64,000 bases of DNA from Syntrophaceae bacterium (GTDB lineage: Bacteria; Desulfobacterota; Syntrophia; Syntrophales; Smithellaceae): positions 23,842 to 87,841 of the forward strand of contig WRPE01000005.1 of NCBI GenBank assembly GCA_009773315.1, in the 5' to 3' direction. Position 1 is the first letter of the stretch; each line of letters starts with the position of its first letter. Position numbers and translations under genes: made by a program. Below the pieces are notes generated by a model. The model did not search any database, had not been told where the DNA came from, and saw nothing but the letters and a program-made list of their open reading frames with translations. This document shows positions 5,026-64,000 of the stretch, one piece after another.

Positions 5026-5043
5026 GATTGGTTTAGAATGATC

Positions 5044-5127
5044 GCCACTCCCTACGCCGGCATTACCCGGGTCAGGTTCAAAGGGTATAATCTCAGCCGT
5101 CCGTTCCACGGATTAAACGGCACCCCG
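5044..5127 (-). ncRNA. TPP riboswitch
   Basis: Minus strand reads GGGGTGCC...GGCTGAGATTATACCCTTTGAACCTGACCCGGGTAATGCCGGCGTAGGGAG, the canonical THI-element core, upstream of thiN-thiD-thiC. Confidence 0.95.
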
Positions 5128-5260
5128 CGAACAAAAATTAATACATTAACTTTCAAAAAGCAATCTCAATTTCACAACCGTTCGGATCTCCGGCAATACT
5201 GCATATGCCGTTACCCGGCTGCTGAATAACTTCAAATTTTCCTGCTTCATTGCAGAAGAT

Positions 5261-43543: not shown

Positions 43544-43619
43544 TGGTGGGCCAGGGCAGAATTGAACTGCCGACACTCGGATTTTCAGTCCGATGCTCTA
43601 CCGACTGAGCTACCGGCCC
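43544..43619 (-). tRNA. tRNA-Phe(GAA)
   Basis: GGGCCGGTAGCTCAGTCGGTAGAGCATCGGACTGAAAATCCGAGTGTCGGCAGTTCAATTCTGCCCTGGCCCACCA; 76 nt with encoded CCA. Confidence 0.97.
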
Positions 43620-48332: not shown

Positions 48333-48408
48333 GTCCCCATCGTCTAGTGGCCTAGGACACGGGCCTTTCACGCCTGTAACCGGGGTTCGACTCCCCGTGG
48401 GGACGCCA
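48333..48408 (+). tRNA. tRNA-Glu(TTC)
   Basis: GTCCCCATCGTCTAGTGGCCTAGGACACGGGCCTTTCACGCCTGTAACCGGGGTTCGACTCCCCGTGGGGACGCCA. Confidence 0.97.
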
Positions 48409-55576: not shown

Positions 55577-56524
55577 TTAATATACCACATTTTCCTGCTG
55601 CTTTACCCACGTCTTCACGTCTTTTAATAAAGCTTTTCTGAATTCATCCGGCTCCAAAATCACGATATGCGGAATCCAGGACTTGAGGATGTCGCGGATA
55701 GACTCGTAGTTGCCTACTCGGAAGATGACGACAAGTGATCCATCAGGCTTGACTTCCCTGATCTCCTGAGTCGGGTACATCTTCCGCCGTCGAAAATAAT
55801 CACTGACGGCTCTGCCCACGAGAACGACAACTTCCAGATTACTCTCCTCTTCAAACCAGATATTAGCGCTTGACCGTAGTGCAGCATCAAGATTTTCCGG
55901 GAAAGCTTTGAAGCCCGCCTTTAATGATCTCAAATCACCGATCTTGTCCATGGCATAGCGCTTGTGTTTCCCGGAATCCGGCTCATTGCCGATGAGATAC
56001 CAGAAGCCGCTGAAGTAAACAACGCGGTAAGGCTCAAGATTGACGGAATGTGCGCCTTGCTTTGCAGCATACTGGAAGCTGACCTGTCTTTTCTCCCTGA
56101 TGGCCTTCACAATCCGGTTCAGCAGGGCACTGTCCAAGTGGACAGCATCATTAATCTTTACGAAAACCGGCATATTGGTGACACAGTCATACAGACTGTT
56201 CAGGACAGAATCGGCAGCATTCTGGAAAGGTTGCCCCAACTGCCCGACAATGTTCTTCAAGGCTACCACCAGGGCCAGCTCCGTGTCGTCAAAGACCTCA
56301 AGGTTCTTTACCAGGTCTTTACTCAACAGATAGTTGCCTTTCTGAATTTCATAGATAGGAAAACCGGATTCTTTAAGCAGCAAGAGATCACGCTGGATAG
56401 TCCGTGGGGTAGTCTGGAAGTATTCACTTAGCCAAGTGCTGGAGACCTTCTCCTTTTCCATGAAGATCCGAAGAATTTGTCCCAGACGGATCAGTTTTGT
56501 CTGCGCGTTGCGGTCACGGGTCAT
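55577..56524 (-). CDS. HTH-WYL-WCX transcriptional regulator
   Basis: RTIQRDL HTH, LEPYRVVYFSGFWYLIG, WIPHIVILEP. Confidence 0.92.
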   Translation of the reverse strand: MTRDRNAQTKLIRLGQILRIFMEKEKVSSTWLSEYFQTTPRTIQRDLLLLKESGFPIYEIQKGNYLLSKDLVKNLEVFDDTELALVVALKNIVGQLGQPFQNAADSVLNSLYDCVTNMPVFVKINDAVHLDSALLNRIVKAIREKRQVSFQYAAKQGAHSVNLEPYRVVYFSGFWYLIGNEPDSGKHKRYAMDKIGDLRSLKAGFKAFPENLDAALRSSANIWFEEESNLEVVVLVGRAVSDYFRRRKMYPTQEIREVKPDGSLVVIFRVGNYESIRDILKSWIPHIVILEPDEFRKALLKDVKTWVKQQENVVY

Positions 56525-56680: not shown

Positions 56681-56766
56681 AAAGCCACTTGCCAAACACC
56701 AGACGAAACATTGAGTTTAAGTTTGCCAGAAAGCAGTTAATCGGCAGAAACAAATTGGAGTCGCGC

Positions 56767-57030
56767 ATGAGTAAACTCATATTTATTTGGAATATCGATC
56801 ATAATAAAAAAGTGAAAATCAAGGAAATCAGAGAATATAATATTGTCAGAGAAAGCAGCGATGAAAAATCTGAATATTGCGTTGACGCTTTTGGATTTTT
56901 CCATGGTGCCGTCCGTGTATTCAAAGGAAGCAAGATGGATTGCATTGACTTCGTAGATTCTCTTACGGAAAGAACCGGAAACAAGCAGGAAGAGATGAAT
57001 GAAAACTGTTTAGAAAAAAGGGGTGAATAA
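56767..57030 (+). CDS. small hypothetical protein
   Basis: ATG after GGAG; first gene of the operon, stop 1 nt before the next start. Confidence 0.55.
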   Translation: MSKLIFIWNIDHNKKVKIKEIREYNIVRESSDEKSEYCVDAFGFFHGAVRVFKGSKMDCIDFVDSLTERTGNKQEEMNENCLEKRGE

Positions 57031-57031
57031 T

Positions 57032-57697
57032 ATGGCAAACGCAACAGATAATCTTGAACAAGCAGAGAAAATAGTTAATGGGATTGTATATGGACACATT
57101 GAAAAAGACCGTGCGTTAAATATATGTCGTTGGCTCATGTCTTTTAACTCACAAGAAAAAGGCTTCAGCGTCAAATGCTACCAAACAAATGTCCCAGACA
57201 TCAGGTTTTGTGTTGACAGAGGAAGCGACTGTGAAGGAAAAAAAATTCGAACCGTTTTTGTAACAATAAGATCAAATCTTCAAATATTATTTCATACAAA
57301 AAACACTGATTTCACATACCTTAAACAAGATCAAAATGATATTTATTATATAATTCCTGAAGCTGGCAAAAAACTTGATATGGCAAGAATAAAATTTCAT
57401 ATTCTTGAAGCATATTGCCAAAAGATTGACCAGCTTAAATTAAATTCCTCTATGTGCATTGGAACCAAAATCACCGAGACTATTGAAACAAATGACACTG
57501 CTATTAACTATTATACTTTTCAGAAAGAAGATTTTGAAAAAGCATACCGAACGATCGCCAAAAAAAACCAGAGTGTTTTCATAGATGCCGTTCTAGATCA
57601 GCTCGAACTTGGCGCGAAAACATTGGGGCATAAGCTGAAAAATAACTGGAGACTTGAAACTGAAAGAAACATCGCAATCTGGTCGAAGATGAAATGA
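57032..57697 (+). CDS. hypothetical protein A: alpha/beta N-domain (weakly DUF5655/YjbR-like) plus shared C-terminal domain
   Basis: C-terminal ~60 aa align without gaps to that of 58009-58572 (14 of 58 identical, W-x3-T-x2-N-x3-WS). Confidence 0.75.
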   Translation: MANATDNLEQAEKIVNGIVYGHIEKDRALNICRWLMSFNSQEKGFSVKCYQTNVPDIRFCVDRGSDCEGKKIRTVFVTIRSNLQILFHTKNTDFTYLKQDQNDIYYIIPEAGKKLDMARIKFHILEAYCQKIDQLKLNSSMCIGTKITETIETNDTAINYYTFQKEDFEKAYRTIAKKNQSVFIDAVLDQLELGAKTLGHKLKNNWRLETERNIAIWSKMK

Positions 57698-57749
57698 TTC
57701 TCATCATCATTTTCCGGTGAGATGCAGTAATAAATCGAAAGAAATTGAT

Positions 57750-57914
57750 ATGAATTATAAATTTGATGAATATTATAAAACGTGGGATAAACATGGTGTT
57801 AAATTAACCTCCCGGATTGAAATAACAAAAGATCATTTGGATCAAGTGACCGAGAAACCTGATGTTTGTGACGTTCTCCCTTTTATTGCTGAGTGCCCTG
57901 GAAAATGGCAGTAA
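57750..57914 (+). CDS. short hypothetical ORF or gene fragment
   Basis: 54 codons inside the operon; no recognised motif. Confidence 0.3.
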   Translation: MNYKFDEYYKTWDKHGVKLTSRIEITKDHLDQVTEKPDVCDVLPFIAECPGKWQ

Positions 57915-58008
57915 GTAAGGAGTGATAGCCGTAGTGACAGAAAAACATGAATAAACTAAGAAGAGAGGGCATTTTTAGATAAATTAATTTCTAAAGGGGG
58001 GCCATAAT

Positions 58009-58572
58009 ATGGCCATTGTAAGCGAACAAAACAGGAAAATACTAAAAAACATGAAAAAAGAAGATGTAAAAAATGCTATGGACCTTTTTGATCAAAAATT
58101 CAGAAAGGATTTCGAAAAGACAAGGTGGAAAAAATATAGCCTATTACATAATGGGCAGTCATATCCACCCAAAGACCTTCTTAGATGTGTCATTGCTGGA
58201 ATGACGAACTCCTTATATGACCGCGATTCTGTAATAGGTGGTGGTCCTAGTATTAATAAATACTTTATTAACCTTGGCTTTACTGTTGAGAATAATGAAA
58301 AGCCGTCTGTTAATGTAAGTAAACCGAACCTCTATGCACGGCAGGAACCAACAAGCACCCCTCCTGCAGGCGAAATCCCAACCAGGGAAGAAATCAAAAA
58401 AATCCTTGGAGAAATAGCGCCTGAAGGAAGAGAAGTTGATGAAGATTCATTAAAGAGTAGAATAGAAGTTACTTTTAAACTTAAAAATCGAATGCTCATG
58501 CCCGACTGGTGGGAAATCACGAAAAAAAATCTCTTAGATTGGTCGAATAAGGACAGAAAGGACAAAGAATGA
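58009..58572 (+). CDS. hypothetical protein B: ScoMcrA-head-like N-domain plus shared C-terminal domain
   Basis: KEDVKNAMDLFD...YSLLHNGQSYPPK...GGGPSINKYFINLGFTV; Pro/Ser/Thr linker; DWWEITKKNLLDWS tail. Confidence 0.8.
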   Translation: MAIVSEQNRKILKNMKKEDVKNAMDLFDQKFRKDFEKTRWKKYSLLHNGQSYPPKDLLRCVIAGMTNSLYDRDSVIGGGPSINKYFINLGFTVENNEKPSVNVSKPNLYARQEPTSTPPAGEIPTREEIKKILGEIAPEGREVDEDSLKSRIEVTFKLKNRMLMPDWWEITKKNLLDWSNKDRKDKE

Positions 58573-59165
58573 CATACAGTAAGTATGCTGAAATGGCATT
58601 ACGCTATGGGATAAAGCCGAATATTCCTATTACAGCAGAAGTATTAGACAAACTGAAAGAACAGTCAGAAATATTTGATTTAATATGGGGATCACAAGCT
58701 GCAATAAGCAACAATTCTTCACCGGCCATATTAAGTATAAGCACTATGGCTGAAATTCGAAGATTAAATGACCTGCTGCTCACACATCCGGCATTCAATA
58801 AAGAAAAATACAAAAATAGCAGGAATGAAATAGAGAAACGTGCAGATAAACATTACTCTGTTGATGTGCGACATTCTCTCAAGCGTTTTACAGAACGACA
58901 AGAAAAAATCAGAATTAAGCTGGGCCTTAGCAATACAGGCAACACTAAAATGACAAAAGAGCATAAGGAATCTGAGTCTCCAGACAGTGAAATTCCTTCT
59001 AGGAATGAGGTTGAAGCGGCAATGCGCAATATCGGCAAACAAGTTCACGAAGATATTCTAAAAGAAACTTTGAATGCCGTCTTTACGAATCAGGGACGAA
59101 AACTCCGCAAGGATTGGTGGGAAGTAACCAAGAAAAATCTTGAAGAATGGTCTAAGAAAGGATGA
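58569..59165 (+). CDS. hypothetical protein C: helical N-domain plus shared C-terminal domain
   Basis: ATGA-coupled to B; tail EIPSRNEV...DWWEVTKKNLEEWS. Confidence 0.8.
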   Translation: MTYSKYAEMALRYGIKPNIPITAEVLDKLKEQSEIFDLIWGSQAAISNNSSPAILSISTMAEIRRLNDLLLTHPAFNKEKYKNSRNEIEKRADKHYSVDVRHSLKRFTERQEKIRIKLGLSNTGNTKMTKEHKESESPDSEIPSRNEVEAAMRNIGKQVHEDILKETLNAVFTNQGRKLRKDWWEVTKKNLEEWSKKG

Positions 59166-59168
59166 TTC

Positions 59169-60338
59169 ATGTCGCAAATAGATTATAACCCGTTGAAAAG
59201 GACCGTGAGAATGTGGGGAACTATGGAACATATCTATGACTATTATGAAGACAAAGATTATTTCTTCTCCCAGGAAATACTGACGCGCTATTTCCTGTCC
59301 CTTAAAACAAAGCCATTTGTTATCCTGACAGGGATCTCCGGCACGGGAAAGACGAAGATTGCCCAAGTCTTCGCGGAATACATGTGCCAAGGGCTTTCTT
59401 CTGAGGAAAAAGCAAAGCGCATCGCCTTTGTACCAGTGCGGCCTGACTGGATGGATAACAAGGGACTTCTGGGATATTATAATCTTCTTGATGAAAAATA
59501 TCATGCCACACCAGTCTTGCAAATTCTACTGGAGGCATCAGAACATCAGGACAAGCCATATTTCATTATTCTCGATGAAATGAATCTGGCCAAGGTGGAA
59601 CAGTATTTCTCCGATTTCCTGAGCATCATGGAGAGCCGGACAACTGGAAATCTTTCCGGTGAACCGCTCTGTCTGCATTCGGCTACAAAGGCCGAAACGC
59701 CTGACGGGTGGGTCATTCCACAACGGATCATAATCCCGTCAAATGTCTATTTTACCGGGACCGTCAACGTGGATGAATCCACCTACATGTTCAGCCCGAA
59801 GGTTCTGGACCGGGCGAATGTTATCGAGTTCAACGAAGTGGATCTGGCAAGCTATGAAAAGGGGATTACTTCGGCTGATGGATGCATCCTGAAGGAACAG
59901 GATGTCAGAGAAAAACTGCTGCCGATGGCGGGGGAAACGCCTTTCTGCAACAAGGCCGATTATACCAGAGCCCAGGAAATGGATAGCGATACCGGTGTGT
60001 ATCTTTCAAAAATCCTGGAAATTCTCCATCCCCATCACCTCCATTTCGGCTTTCGCGTCGTCAATGAAATTTCCCGGTTTATCCTGCATGCCAGTGACAT
60101 GCTCCAGGATTTTAAACTCGAAGAAACGCTGGATATCCAGATCCTTCAGAAGATCCTACCCAAGTTTCACGGCACCCAGGCGAAACTGGAAGAACCGCTG
60201 GGAAAACTGCTGGCCTTTTGCAGCGGTGTAGAGTCTGAAGAAATTCCGGAAGATGCCCCGTTTCCCAGATCAGCGCAGAAACTGGCCAGGATGATCCAGA
60301 ACCTGAAAATTCAAGGCTATGCGAGCTTTATCGAGTAA
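59169..60338 (+). CDS. mcrB: McrB-family AAA+ GTPase lacking an N-terminal DNA-binding domain
   Basis: KPFVILTGISGTGKT, PVRPDW, LDEMNLAKVEQYFSDFLS, GTVNVDESTYMFSPKVLDRAN, QKILPKFHG, GYASF; only ~50 aa precede Walker A. Confidence 0.9.
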   Translation: MSQIDYNPLKRTVRMWGTMEHIYDYYEDKDYFFSQEILTRYFLSLKTKPFVILTGISGTGKTKIAQVFAEYMCQGLSSEEKAKRIAFVPVRPDWMDNKGLLGYYNLLDEKYHATPVLQILLEASEHQDKPYFIILDEMNLAKVEQYFSDFLSIMESRTTGNLSGEPLCLHSATKAETPDGWVIPQRIIIPSNVYFTGTVNVDESTYMFSPKVLDRANVIEFNEVDLASYEKGITSADGCILKEQDVREKLLPMAGETPFCNKADYTRAQEMDSDTGVYLSKILEILHPHHLHFGFRVVNEISRFILHASDMLQDFKLEETLDIQILQKILPKFHGTQAKLEEPLGKLLAFCSGVESEEIPEDAPFPRSAQKLARMIQNLKIQGYASFIE

Positions 60339-60339
60339 T

Positions 60340-62004
60340 ATGGCGATTCTCCTTTATTCATCAGAACTCCGCATGGCCATAGCCGATGATCCCCAGTTTC
60401 TGTCCGACGAATCGGCATTATCGTCAATGGATCATGACGGCACGCCCATCATCCTTCAGGACTGGGAAACCTATTTTGTCAAGTTTTATGGTGAAACCGA
60501 GCCCCCGTTCTTTCCGGAACCAGGGAGATATTACAATCAACGAAAATTTCCAGGTCGGCTGTTTGAGGTAAGTTTTCGCAACGCCGTGGGAATGACGCGC
60601 ATCGGCCCCATCCCTATCCTTGTTGTCAGCAGAAAAATCACGGATACGGTTTACGCGGCGATGCTGGATTATATCGCCGGGAAGTACGCCAATCTGGTGT
60701 TCAGCTTTGAAAACCCGCTCGGTCAGCAATACTGTAAGGATAGGCCGGGGCAGGATATCGCCTATGTGGAATATCTTTTCCTCAAAAAATATCTCCTGGA
60801 CGGATCGCCAAACATAGACAGTATTGCCGCACTAATCCTGGCCAATCCCCACCGCAGGCTCTATCGGGAATATCGCCGTAACAGCATTGATGCGATCACA
60901 AGTATTCCGCCAGCGATGCTAGTCAACATGTTCAGTTCACCCGACCGCTTCGCTGTCCTGAAACCCGATCATCCTTTGGTGTCAACAGCCTGCGGACGGG
61001 CCATCTTCAACAGAACCGGTCGGAGGTTGTTTCCCGCCGAGGCCATGGAGGAACGGAAGCATTATACAGTGGATACGAATGAAAACCGGTTCATGAAGCA
61101 TTTTCTGCAATCGGTTCAGCGCCGTCTGCAAGGTCTGGCGAAAGCCCTGAAGGGAAAAAGCGGTGGCTATCTCAATCCCGATATTGAAGCATCTCTGGAA
61201 AAAATGGACAGGGGACTTATGTTTTTTTTATCCGATCCCTTCTGGTCCGATGTGGGAACCATGCGCTTCATTCCGGCCGGGTCGCAGGTCTTGCAGCGTC
61301 GCGACGGCTACCGCCAGTTGTTCCGTCTTTATTCTTTGCTTCAGCTTGCCACCCATTGCCATTTCAATAACGATGATTTTCAAAATCTTCTGGAAACCAA
61401 AGATACTCCGACGCTTTTTGAATACTGGTCCTTTTTCGTTGTTAAGGATGTTCTGGATAAAATAAACAAAATCCGGTCCTGCAGGACGGTTGTATCCACC
61501 GATCCTCTTGAACAAAAAATAATTCAGGGCATCTGCATCGAATATGAAGGCGGAATTTTCCTGTGGTTCAATAGAATCTCTCCAGGGTCTCCCGGGTTCA
61601 TGCCTTTCGAAAATCCGCGTAATACCGTTCCCAATGAAAGCTACTCCCATAACCTGCGACCAGATATCGTCATTTCGAGAGGCAACAACATACTCATATT
61701 CGATGCCAAATTCAAAGGCCAGCGGGACAGTTTTTACGGTGATGAGAGGGGTGACGGAACCATCGGTAAATGGAGGGAAGAGGACATCGACAAGATGCAT
61801 ACCTACCGGGAGGCAATCCGGAATGTCTCCGGCGCCTATATCCTCTATCCGGGGGAGGAAGCGGCCATTTATTCGGCGCACAATTCGACAGGAATATATG
61901 AAGGTGTTGGAGCCTTGCCATTAAAGCCGGAAGCGGGGGCGCGACCGGTTCAGCGGCACCTCGAAGGTATCGAAAAGATAGTCAAAGAGTTTATTGCTGT
62001 ATGA
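60340..62004 (+). CDS. mcrC: McrC-like DUF2357 plus PD-(D/E)XK nuclease
   Basis: VDTNENRFMK, LFEYW, LRPDI...IFDAKF, DIDKMHTYREAI, YILYPG. Confidence 0.88.
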   Translation: MAILLYSSELRMAIADDPQFLSDESALSSMDHDGTPIILQDWETYFVKFYGETEPPFFPEPGRYYNQRKFPGRLFEVSFRNAVGMTRIGPIPILVVSRKITDTVYAAMLDYIAGKYANLVFSFENPLGQQYCKDRPGQDIAYVEYLFLKKYLLDGSPNIDSIAALILANPHRRLYREYRRNSIDAITSIPPAMLVNMFSSPDRFAVLKPDHPLVSTACGRAIFNRTGRRLFPAEAMEERKHYTVDTNENRFMKHFLQSVQRRLQGLAKALKGKSGGYLNPDIEASLEKMDRGLMFFLSDPFWSDVGTMRFIPAGSQVLQRRDGYRQLFRLYSLLQLATHCHFNNDDFQNLLETKDTPTLFEYWSFFVVKDVLDKINKIRSCRTVVSTDPLEQKIIQGICIEYEGGIFLWFNRISPGSPGFMPFENPRNTVPNESYSHNLRPDIVISRGNNILIFDAKFKGQRDSFYGDERGDGTIGKWREEDIDKMHTYREAIRNVSGAYILYPGEEAAIYSAHNSTGIYEGVGALPLKPEAGARPVQRHLEGIEKIVKEFIAV

Positions 62005-62756
62005 TAGAAATAGCATACATGATCGAATTACTGAAAAAGCTCAATACGGATGTCACGTTCAGGCCAGATAACGGCGCGTTTCGCTCTAAACTGGTTGAAA
62101 CGGTCATTGATAATGCTGATGAAGAATACGTGGAGCTTTTTTCCGCAAATAGCTGCGATATACAGGTCATCATTTCGAATCGAACTATTGACGAAGGTGT
62201 AATACGGTTTGTGGTTGGCAGTGATCTTGGTGAACAATCATTGGAATGCGACGTTTCCGTACTTAGTGAAAGGGCAATCCATGATCTTACCGGGCAGCTG
62301 ACCCGATTAATTGCAGAACAGTCTCCACCTGAGACACATTGTCCACCAAAGGTCATTATCAGGAAAAATTATGAGGGTATGCTGAACATTCATCAGGCTG
62401 CGCAAAAACTCGGATGCTCGCAAATATTTCTGAAAAGCAGAATTCCCTGTACGTACTATACCTACAATGAGGTTAATGGTAAAAAAGAAATTAAGGAATA
62501 TTACTGGTCAAAAAATCTGATTGATCGACTATGCAACTCCAAGATGAATGGGATAAAAGAAGATGTGAAATATATTGCAGAGGAATGCTGTGAGGGTGAT
62601 TACAAGTGGGCAGAGGAAATTTTGGGCTTGCTTGCACACCCTATGTCCATGCGCAAAGTTGATGCCGCATTACCGAAAAACATAACAAAACAGCCAGTAA
62701 AGTTCATTGCCAAGGGAACTACAAGCACCGAGCCTTCACGAAAGAAGATCCGATGA
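62001..62756 (+). CDS. hypothetical protein with excisionase/MerR-like HTH
   Basis: ATGA-coupled to mcrC; MLNIHQAAQKLGCSQIFLKSRI segment. Confidence 0.6.
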   Translation: MIEIAYMIELLKKLNTDVTFRPDNGAFRSKLVETVIDNADEEYVELFSANSCDIQVIISNRTIDEGVIRFVVGSDLGEQSLECDVSVLSERAIHDLTGQLTRLIAEQSPPETHCPPKVIIRKNYEGMLNIHQAAQKLGCSQIFLKSRIPCTYYTYNEVNGKKEIKEYYWSKNLIDRLCNSKMNGIKEDVKYIAEECCEGDYKWAEEILGLLAHPMSMRKVDAALPKNITKQPVKFIAKGTTSTEPSRKKIR

Positions 62757-62806: not shown

Positions 62807-64000
62807 ATGCAGAAAATTGAAGACACAATTTATTACTCTGCTTCCGATGTCGTCAATTTTCTTGAATGCGAGCATCTGACGGCGTTGGGTCTAATCAACC
62901 TGGAAACCCCTCTTCCTCAAACTGAGGATGACGAGGAGGCCATTCTGTATCAGCAGAAGGGGGTTGCCCATGAAGGGGCGTATGTTGATCACCTTCGAAA
63001 CAGTGTGTCATGTCTCGTGGATATTTCCGGACACAGGAATGATCTGGATATGGCGGTGTTGGCGACTCAGGACGCTATGCGTTCCGGGGCAGATATCATC
63101 TATCAGGCCGCTTTGCGAAATGGTTTCTTTATAGGCCATGCGGATTTCTTAAGACGGGTAGCCATGCCATCCAGCCTGGGCAACTTCAGCTATGAGGTTA
63201 TCGACACCAAACTGGCCCGTTCTGCCAAGGCTTCATATCTCATTCAACTTTGTTTCTATTCCGAACTGGTTGCCCACATCCAGGGGCAGAATCCCCTCAT
63301 GATGCACATCGTCCTTGGTGATCGCCGGGAGGTAAGTTATCGCCATGCCAACTATTCCCGGTACTATGGATTTCTTAAACAGCGATTTGTCAACCGGGTC
63401 CATTCACCAGCAAATGAAACCTACCCGGACCGCTGTGAACACTGTGATTATTGCCGGTGGCGAAATCTGTGTGAGGATCGCCGTCTCAAGGACGATCATC
63501 TGAGTCTGGTTGCCAATATCACTCGCCTTCAGATAAGGAAGTTGAATGCTCATGGCGTAACGACACTGGAATCACTAGCCAAACTTCCAGTGCATGAATA
63601 TATCCCTAAAATGATTCCAGAAACGCTGGGAAAACTACGCCATCAGGCGGCGCTGCAACTTCGCAAACGGGAAACAGGAACAGACTGCTTCGATCTCCTG
63701 CCCCTGGATTTGGAAGAAAAAAGGGGATTCTTTAGACTGCCGAAATCTGATGCCGGGGATATTTTCTTCGATATGGAAGGAAACCCGCTTGCGGAAGATG
63801 GTTTGGAATACTTGTTCGGTGCTCTGATATTCAACGGGGGAAAACCTTCTTTCCAGAGCTATTGGGCACATAACCGGCATGAAGAACGACAGGCCTTTGA
63901 GCAGTTCTTGGATTTTGTCGCCGGTCATCTTCAAAAACATCCCCATGCCCACATCTACCACTATGCCCATTACGAAGAGACAGCCCTGAAACGGCTTATG
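62807..64000 (+). CDS. TM0106-family RecB-like nuclease (runs off the window)
   Basis: Manual translation: YSASDVVNFLECEH, GVAHE, IIYQAAL, GHADFL, YEVIDTKLA, QLCFYS, CEHCDYCRW..LC, FFDMEG, LEYLFG, HIYHYAHYE. Confidence 0.88.
   Translation, partial: MQKIEDTIYYSASDVVNFLECEHLTALGLINLETPLPQTEDDEEAILYQQKGVAHEGAYVDHLRNSVSCLVDISGHRNDLDMAVLATQDAMRSGADIIYQAALRNGFFIGHADFLRRVAMPSSLGNFSYEVIDTKLARSAKASYLIQLCFYSELVAHIQGQNPLMMHIVLGDRREVSYRHANYSRYYGFLKQRFVNRVHSPANETYPDRCEHCDYCRWRNLCEDRRLKDDHLSLVANITRLQIRKLNAHGVTTLESLAKLPVHEYIPKMIPETLGKLRHQAALQLRKRETGTDCFDLLPLDLEEKRGFFRLPKSDAGDIFFDMEGNPLAEDGLEYLFGALIFNGGKPSFQSYWAHNRHEERQAFEQFLDFVAGHLQKHPHAHIYHYAHYEETALKRLM

Follow-up and report, generated by a model that had tools for sequence, protein, structure and literature searches.

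In a 64,000-nucleotide (nt) stretch of the genome of a Syntrophaceae bacterium (assembly GCA_009773315.1, contig WRPE01000005.1, positions 23,842 to 87,841), which is referred to below as the window, positions 57032 to 62004 encode a McrBC-like system in which an McrB motor without a fused N-terminal DNA-binding domain and an McrC nuclease are preceded by three genes, A, B, and C. The products of these genes, here called adaptors, consist of unrelated N-terminal domains (heads) joined by a polar linker to a common C-terminal tail of about 60 amino acids (aa). The locus is probably a Type IV McrBC-like system of the NxD branch of McrB proteins, with A, B, and C acting in trans as its specificity subunits and the tail serving as the coupling module. 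DNA binders that act in trans on a headless McrB are already known in kind; what is new here is a headless NxD McrB, with its McrC, that is served by one to four exchangeable head-plus-tail subunits.

The first-pass annotation of this DNA had described A, B, and C as proteins with unrelated N-termini and a shared C-terminal domain, and sequence comparisons bore this out. In BLASTP searches the tails of B and C matched with an E-value of 2e-15 (40% identity over 72 aa) and those of A and C with 9e-5, while A and B gave no match. A profile built from 23 tail sequences alone (A3) recovered all three proteins from the window's genome with E-values in the range of 1e-25 to 1e-27 (B 1.1e-27, A 1.8e-25, C 6.1e-25) and no fourth copy, and the search of the same genome with a single tail also returned just A, B, and C. 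The N-termini of the three proteins were each placed in a BLAST cluster of their own. When 1.84 billion representative proteins were searched with a profile, 149 matched at E ≤ 1e-3; this profile also took in the N-domain of C, and six of the 150 stored cluster representatives matched that part alone, while a tail-only hidden Markov model (HMM) found the tail in 144 of the 150. When these representatives were taken together with the window and locus proteins, the tail was located at most 15 aa from the C-terminus in 157 of 161 tail proteins, as it is at the C-termini of A, B, and C. The motif that had been read from the three tails proved valid across the family, with its P conserved in 98%, L in 95%, first W in 100%, T in 94%, N in 89%, and second W in 92% of 158 tails. 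The mean net charge of these tails was −0.7 ± 2.6, and this slightly acidic character is unlike that of a DNA-binding helix-turn-helix.

We propose these sequences as a new family, the McrB-coupled adaptor tail, defined as a terminal domain of about 60 aa with the pattern P...L..W...T..N...W, encoded by a gene directly upstream of a headless mcrB-mcrC pair. No match for A, B, C, or the short open reading frame (ORF) orf65 located between A and B was found in Pfam, NCBIfam, PHROGs, or PADLOC; the tail profile gave chance or low-complexity matches only against PDB sequences, and a tblastn search of phage records with a threshold of E ≤ 1 returned no tail. A word-based search, which is a weak method, found no longer proteins with the tail of C. 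The family has two subtypes, the more numerous A-type, ending in ...NWRxITExNIEIWSKK, and the BC-type, ending in ...DWWEITKKNLxEWSKKG. Where an array mixes the two, the A-type was located upstream and the BC-type next to mcrB in ten arrays (the window, L015, L022, L048, L049, L051, L052, L056, L058, and L066) and the order was reversed in one, in a sample that is biased, as patterns of the A-type were used to retrieve the metagenome loci. The two subtypes may address two distinct docking sites on the McrBC core. As a simple rule, annotators can look for a small gene whose product ends in ...W..xT..N...W(S)KK and that precedes the gene of an McrB of about 400 aa.

To collect further loci, tail genes were gathered from a 400-genome sample of the phylum, from pattern scans of the genomes of 185,579 species, which used separate alignments of the A and BC subtypes and added four loci (L022, L024, L025, and L027), and from a metagenome scan, which added 28 loci. 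After nine duplicates were dropped (L021, L023, L026, L047, L055, L061, L067, L068, and L072), 33 non-redundant loci remained. In the phylum sample the tail was present in six genomes besides that of the window, and phmmer searches with the window proteins showed McrB and McrC adjoining the tail gene or genes in five of the six. Ahead of McrB and McrC were three tail genes in G031 (L015) and one each in G098 (L016) and G338 (L018); G312 (L020) has tail gene, McrB, and McrC in degraded form, and in G118 (L017) head, tail, and McrB form one 613-aa chain, with McrC encoded after it, while the exception, G074 (L019), has a tail without McrB.

The linkage that the first-pass annotation had suggested checking with a tail HMM was found, with a headless mcrB and a DUF2357 mcrC directly after the array in 24 of the 33 loci. 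The gap between the array and mcrB was from −29 to +34 nt in 21 of these 24, 193 and 306 nt in two degraded loci, and the remaining one is the fusion. Eight of the nine loci without McrB are on contigs that end 72–885 nt past the last tail gene, and McrB was present in 21 of the 22 loci whose sequence extends 1 kb or more past the array, the exception being L019, with 9.4 kb. Five of the eight short contigs (L045, L046, L052, L054, and L057) end within an ORF of 40 aa or longer, which could possibly be the head of a next adaptor. The number of tail genes was variable, as had been anticipated: it was one in ten loci, two in eight, three in five, and four in one (n = 24), these numbers being lower bounds where contigs begin inside the array. 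The reverse search, with McrB, gave a match at E ≤ 1e-40 in 13 of the 401 genomes of the phylum sample, including three diverged headless McrBs without a strong tail match, each of which has a small gene upstream. In two of these three loci hhalign detected a diverged tail upstream, with 63% and 31% probability, as compared to at most 1.2% for the C-termini of 40 control ORFs. The layout recurs in several Thermodesulfobacteriota lineages, Geopsychrobacter and Desulfofustis among those named, and on many metagenome contigs. Tail genes were also present on a 2.8-kb contig of a Spirochaetales metagenome-assembled genome that ends inside the array (L024); no McrB of this clade at E ≤ 1e-10 was seen in that assembly, for which completeness is not given. 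In L053 a partial second McrC-like gene (2–1150) is located directly upstream of the adaptor array; according to Bell et al. (2024, eLife, PMC11090510), several McrBC systems often share one island.

The core proteins were then compared with known families. McrB had been considered a bare motor with about 50 aa before Walker A, and this agrees with the sequence, in which the Walker A motif GISGTGKT begins at residue 55, preceded by only 54 residues, and a fused N-terminal DNA-binding domain is absent; the Walker B motif is ILDEMN. The protein matched Pfam AAA_5 at 26.1 bits (cut-off 22) and the PADLOC model PDC-M26A with an E-value of 3.1e-61, but only from profile position 304 of 724, so that the usual N-terminal head is missing. 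A profile of 105 McrB homologues matched the Escherichia coli McrB chains 6hz4, 6ut6, and 7vsr (1.4e-6 to 2.8e-6), while the score against the equivalog model of EcoKMcrB, NCBIfam NF008457, was 29 bits, below the cut-off of 637. The signature loop, GTVNVDEST, has NxD followed by E instead of the canonical NxxD (MNTADRS-type), and in the profile alignment its N-V-D faces N-T-A(D) of 6hz4 (GLMNTA). McrC matched DUF2357 (1.2e-43, 149.6 bits versus 23.3) and PDDEXK_7 (2.3e-14, 54.3 bits versus 22.1) in Pfam, and its nuclease motif, ...PDIV...FDAKFK (D...DxK), was intact when read by eye from the sequence. In phmmer searches against the PDB it gave only insignificant per-domain matches, to unrelated proteases, and no PADLOC model matched McrC, A, B, or C. 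Plasmid records contained McrB relatives only, all below 60% identity, and among the ten listed some of the features beneath the match were annotated as EVE or DUF3578.

The relationship between adaptor heads and McrB was examined in the 120 best McrB homologues, of which 109 were headless (340–420 aa) and 11 were longer. The tail was present in one of the longer proteins, P0181 (the L017 protein), a single chain in which a linker of about 14 residues joins head and tail to McrB. Six of the ten tail-less long McrBs carried N-domains homologous to adaptor heads. P0190 and P0233 matched the head of A (42% and 38% identity over 142–151 aa), P0175 matched the largest head cluster, P0173, with DUF4268, matched P0119, P0238 matched P0054, and P0242 matched P0061, P0124, and P0147, while the heads of P0216, P0227, P0228, and P0260 had no match to adaptor heads. 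The same domains are thus used either covalently, in the place of the canonical DNA-binding domain, or in trans together with the tail, and these data fit the earlier proposal that the readers are detached counterparts of fused McrB heads. The tail is usually absent when the head is fused and present when it is detached, which is the strongest argument that the tail would replace the covalent link.

The L019 gene (G074:C89 9452–10531, − strand) encodes a 359-aa protein in which the tail, at residues 141–205, follows a head of unknown type and precedes a C-terminal part with the pattern CxxC...HH...CxxCH, which matched Pfam HNH below the threshold, with an E-value of 0.0025 (18.4 bits, cut-off 21.4). 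Its neighbors are PEGA, ARPP-1, TOTE primase-like, and Cas1 genes. Apparently another nuclease, probably of the HNH type, has taken up a head-tail module here to form a single-chain enzyme, which supports a targeting role of the module.

Adaptor genes were also found to change much faster than the core. In comparison with the syntenic locus L022, the identity was 93% for the regulator encoded upstream of the operon (WYL), 89% for orf113, the putative first gene of the operon, 87% for McrB, and 85% for McrC, but 62% for B and 39% for C, and the slot of A is occupied in L022 by a protein with a different head, with which only the tail is common (40% over 60 aa). Contigs from two other runs, X5 (3253 nt) and X6 (1458 nt), match orf113 and the part from B to McrB, with 56984 joined to 57871 across 635 different letters, which indicates that gene A has been replaced. 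Hence, the description of the adaptors as interchangeable is supported both by these contigs and by L022. In a tblastn comparison, 39 aa of the short orf65 aligned with L022's third adaptor at 59% identity; orf65 also matched the N-termini of the C family, and several short adaptor remnants in other loci are also decayed. The adaptor genes had a GC content of 0.34–0.37 as compared to about 0.49 over mcrBC, and they were more AT-rich than the following mcrB in all 19 loci compared, with a mean difference of 6.6 points (0.364 versus 0.474 GC in the window); this could come from horizontal exchange or from amino-acid composition. A 21-nt stretch that covers the ribosome-binding site and start is common to A (57016–57036) and B (57993–58013), with 81% identity, and may be a cassette boundary. 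Switching by inversion, as in a shufflon, was considered and rejected, as there are no long inverted repeats and no recombinase, and the B and C tail sequences are only 77% identical over 47 nt.

The heads are diverse, as had been expected of modified-base readers. When N-regions of at least 50 aa were grouped by single-linkage BLAST clustering, 147 of them formed 66 clusters, several of which carry both tail subtypes. Pfam matches were found in only six of the 150 proteins from the tail search, five with DUF4268 and one with DUF7225. The former is described as accessory to the GmrSD Type IV enzymes, with DNA binding as its predicted function. When other heads were scanned against Pfam with relaxed thresholds, only sub-threshold winged-helix hints and DUF7225 came up. 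The head of B had no Pfam HMM match at E ≤ 0.1; in the ESM Atlas its feature similarity of 0.89 was below 0.9 and counts as a lead only, while the structure comparison gave template modeling (TM) scores of 0.65–0.72 to clusters bearing PF26345, meeting the bar for naming. Its nearest ESM Atlas clusters include McrB-family and HNH proteins, and a resemblance to the ScoMcrA_N head domain (PF26345) is a lead. The head family of A (alignment A8) keeps a Cys/Trp pattern, ICxW, KCY, and FCxDRG.DC (57032–57480), which could be a metal site. The head family of C (alignment A9) has 19 members, and the head of C had no match in Pfam, PDB, or ESM Atlas; profiles of the A and C families compared with PDB sequences gave chance or low-complexity matches only. 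Only B and the DUF4268 members resemble domains known from Type IV enzymes; the heads may read modified bases.

The docking of the tail on McrB was explored by complex prediction, using McrB (105-row alignment) and the tail of C (17-row alignment) together with three controls. The pair scored 0.35 (runs 0.30, 0.36, and 0.35) as compared to 0.00 for the best control, which is rated "weak support"; 88% or more of the contacts were the same between runs, and the predicted local distance difference test (pLDDT) value of the partner was at least 83 (83–84). The mark for this score is reached by 58 of 80 solved complexes and by two of 110 mismatched pairs, a calibration that is rough here because custom alignments were used, and among those reaching the mark, scores of at most 0.60 belonged to seven of the 80 solved complexes and to both mismatched pairs. 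Given the strong prior from the linkage and the fused heads, the predicted score is mildly supportive. The earlier proposal that the adaptors dock on McrB through their tails is therefore upheld to the extent of this score, and docking is otherwise what we infer. The N-terminal McrB peptide DYxPxKRTVKMWG was considered as the socket of the tail and rejected, as it is also kept in several tail-less fusions.

In the proposed mechanism, the targeting function would have moved off the motor, with McrB left as a bare AAA+ NTPase and McrC as the nuclease, while A, B, and C, and once also the decayed orf65, would be alternative specificity subunits, each made of a target-binding head, a polar linker, and a coupling tail. 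The non-basic tail would couple the adaptor to the McrBC core, most likely by docking close to the N-terminus of a McrB protomer. Several readers would then direct a single motor-nuclease simultaneously, and the cassettes would be swapped quickly under phage pressure. A further-reaching version of this mechanism is possible, with chances somewhat short of even: the tail may be a universal plug, one McrB hexamer may be loaded with up to four readers, possibly mixed, to give a combinatorial multi-specificity Type IV enzyme, cassettes may be swapped between strains by recombination, the two subtypes may use two sockets, and other nucleases, such as the probable HNH protein of L019, may be able to capture the module. 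In Type I restriction-modification systems, a separate, fast-evolving, and exchangeable specificity subunit, HsdS, likewise aims a shared motor-nuclease, and alternative copies are possible at one locus. However, HsdS combines two target-recognition domains within a conserved frame in one subunit, and it has no relation in sequence or architecture to the adaptors, which have one head and one tail and no methylase.

Several observations weigh against reading A, B, and C as specificity subunits coupled to McrBC by their tails. Since 144 of the 150 N-domains are without a Pfam family, the term reader derives from the position of the heads, and the ScoMcrA head domain itself is described as having no known function. 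In the range of the tail–McrB score, most passes are wrong unless a strong prior stands behind them, and a single tail–McrB fusion is known. In L042, a diverged headless McrB is preceded by a gene without a detectable tail (hhalign 0.1%), and G074, which is 98% complete, has the tail but no McrB of this clade at E ≤ 1e-10, so that the tail can occur independently of McrB. Furthermore, A-type patterns were used to retrieve the metagenome loci, several of which are from related samples, so their counts are not independent. The adaptors could also belong to the system while the tail binds McrC or joins adaptors together instead of binding McrB, a possibility for which the first-pass annotation had left room. 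We consider this rather unlikely, even though McrC is linked to the arrays as tightly as McrB, the weakly scoring complex prediction covered the tail with McrB alone, and the order of tail subtypes could mean two docking sites. The only known fusion joins the tail to McrB, across the short linker, the last adaptor is translationally coupled to mcrB, and the controls of the McrB complex scored 0.00; moreover, the ten of 24 loci with a single adaptor rule out an obligate hetero-assembly.

Unlikely as well is that A, B, and C are regulators or sensors, such as McrBC inhibitors or receptors of phage proteins, and not nucleic-acid readers. The many heads without a family, the ScoMcrA head without an assigned function, and the fast turnover, which also fits the sensing of phage proteins, would agree with such a role. 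It is at odds with the finding that the same heads occupy the McrB N-terminus in fused relatives, the position of the canonical DNA-binding domain according to the LlaI preprint (bioRxiv 10.64898/2026.08.31.748284), and also with the predicted DNA binding of DUF4268 in GmrSD, the sub-threshold winged-helix hints, and the fusion of an adaptor module to a probable HNH nuclease in L019. The first-pass annotation had itself named the alternative that the tail is a small winged-helix-like DNA-binding module, in which case the proteins might act on DNA without McrBC, for instance by regulating transcription within the island. This is very improbable, because the mean charge of the tails is slightly negative, the head is kept but the tail lost in ten of 11 fused McrBs, the linkage to McrB is near-obligate with a spacing of 1–10 nt, no solved structure matched in sequence, and a WYL regulator is already there; the small size of the module, its confident modeling (partner pLDDT 83–84), and its occurrence without McrB in L019 are the points in its favor. 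Finally, orf65, the short remnants elsewhere, and the wholly degraded system of G312 might suggest that the adaptors are decaying leftovers of split mcrB heads without present function. We give this almost no credence, since A, B, and C have intact frames, conservation of the motif is strong in the 158 tails, the architecture recurs across lineages, and translational coupling is kept. Hence, coupling of exchangeable specificity subunits to McrBC through the tail is the reading that we follow below.

Among described systems, LlaI, LlaJI, and BsuMI are three-gene McrBC systems in which R1 is the DNA binder, R2 the McrB-like AAA+ protein, and R3 the McrC-like nuclease; R1 of LlaI binds R2 monomers and hexamers at the outside of the ring, and the R2A/R46A mutant breaks this contact, as stated in the LlaI preprint (bioRxiv 10.64898/2026.08.31.748284). 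The 24 loci with McrB are similar to LlaI and BsuMI in that the gene of a separate binder precedes those of a headless McrB-like motor and of an McrC-like nuclease, provided that the adaptors do bind DNA. They are different in that LlaI and BsuMI have, in the same text, one R1 with a two-domain ERCC4-like fold and no common small docking tail. LlaI and BsuMI also target DNA site-specifically and have protective methyltransferases, while here one to four unrelated heads with a common 60-aa tail stand beside an NxD McrB and a DUF2357 McrC. None of the searches linked A, B, or C to an LlaI-type R1 by sequence, R1 never having been used as the query. A search confined to PF00145, PF01555, and PF02384 found no methyltransferase on the locus contig in G000, G031, G098, and G118, and in G338 the nearest was about 95 kb away, which fits a Type IV, modification-dependent system better than a restriction-modification system. 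The claim that no system with this layout had been described holds in part: LlaI and BsuMI do encode R1 apart from R2, while the literature searched contained no description of a common small coupling domain, of arrays of alternative heads, or of this architecture in the NxD branch.

The system shares with canonical McrBC, such as EcoKMcrBC and that of Thermococcus gammatolerans, the AAA+ motor with Walker A and B motifs and a signature loop, the McrC finger (DUF2357) with a PD-(D/E)xK nuclease, and the adjacent, overlapping genes. The N-terminal target-binding domains of canonical McrBs vary between homologues, as do the heads here. In canonical McrBC, however, the reader is fused to McrB, with one per protomer and one kind per system, while here it is detached and plural, and the motif is NxD, not NxxD. 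McrBC is regarded as the textbook motor-driven Type IV restriction enzyme, in which the arrangement of targeting domains around the ring is described as unresolved in the LlaI preprint (bioRxiv 10.64898/2026.08.31.748284). The NxD group is a large branch of McrB with no member characterized, according to Bell et al. (2024, eLife, PMC11090510), who also describe NxD followed by E in the signature loop of the NxD/CoCoNuT branch, as found here. Many NxD systems are associated with methyltransferases (PMC11090510), and the locus differs in this respect: no methyltransferase, two-component, or extra nuclease genes were seen at it, unlike in NxD/CoCoNuT systems. Unlike CoCoNuT proteins as described in that text, the 389-aa McrB has no coiled-coil fusion, no HEPN match was found, and the McrC nuclease motif, often inactivated in CoCoNuTs, is intact. 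The accessible main text of PMC11090510 does not mention tail-bearing adaptor arrays, although its supplementary files may list these operons, and it announces a later paper on the remaining NxD systems. The McrB core also matched the PADLOC candidate system PDC-M26 through PDC-M26A, the N-terminal part of which is absent here; no paper naming PDC-M26 was found in the literature searched.

If the proposed reading is true, these enzymes would have handed targeting over to a set of small subunits that can be exchanged and that are attached by a 60-residue domain dedicated to coupling, which would explain how one nuclease follows many phage DNA modifications. The NxD branch would also gain its first functional handle, and there would be about 66 new candidate domains for nucleic-acid recognition and a natural plug-in scaffold for modification-specific nucleases.

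Features of the window in and around the adaptor–McrBC locus
Feature	Position	Strand	Description
Thiamine pyrophosphate (TPP) riboswitch	5032–5137	−	
tRNA-Phe	43544–43619	−	
tRNA-Glu	48333–48408	+	
HTH-WYL-WCX regulator	55577–56524	−	Divergent from the operon; Pfam WYL 8.8e-15, WCX 9.3e-12, HTH_11 6e-8; PADLOC WYL 4.9e-30
orf113	56689–57030	+	113 aa (87 aa with the likely ATG start at 56768); first gene of the putative operon
Adaptor A	57032–57697	+	221 aa (224 from GTG 57023); N-domain about residues 1–150, polar linker, A-type tail 57500–57694
orf65	57717–57914	+	65 aa; truncated leftover of a fourth adaptor, keeping some 45 N-terminal residues of a C-family head
Adaptor B	58009–58572	+	187 aa; ScoMcrA-head-like N-domain, linker, BC-type tail 58360–58569
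Adaptor C	58569–59165	+	198 aa; helical-looking N-domain, linker, BC-type tail 58977–59162
McrB-like AAA+ NTPase	59169–60338	+	389 aa; headless, NxD branch
McrC	60319–62004	+	561 aa; DUF2357 finger/activator and PD-(D/E)xK nuclease
orf251	62001–62756	+	251 aa; 4-nt overlap with the mcrC stop
TM0106-family RecB-like nuclease, RNase-H-like, and superfamily 1 (SF1) helicase gene	62807–64000 on	+	Start only; NCBIfam TIGR03491 6.5e-66

All genes of the putative operon are on the + strand and are closely spaced or overlapping, at positions that match the first-pass annotation. The start of C overlaps the stop of B by 4 nt, the array ends with the stop of C 3 nt before mcrB, and mcrC overlaps mcrB by 20 nt. 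The ATG at 57032 that the first-pass annotation had taken as the start of A is the likely one, in preference to the GTG at 57023 given in the ORF list, as homologues begin with MANATDNL, MSNATDNL, or MNATDNL. The start region of A is overlapped by orf113, which had no family match in Pfam, NCBIfam, PHROGs, or PADLOC; a homologue with 89% identity is located at the same place in L022, and none was found in the other loci. The divergent HTH-WYL-WCX protein is a probable regulator of the island. Downstream of mcrC, orf251 had no match in Pfam, NCBIfam, PHROGs, or PADLOC and no homologue in any other locus searched, and its membership in the system is doubtful. The TM0106-type nuclease-helicase gene that follows it, the full length of which is 1132 aa as read in L073 (1149–4547), has homologues adjoining the system only in L022 (9062–12181) and L027 (2–5211; upstream and split in two), and it may be a separate defense gene or an occasional partner of McrBC. 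The defense island itself starts about 7 kb downstream of the tRNA-Glu gene, past housekeeping genes.

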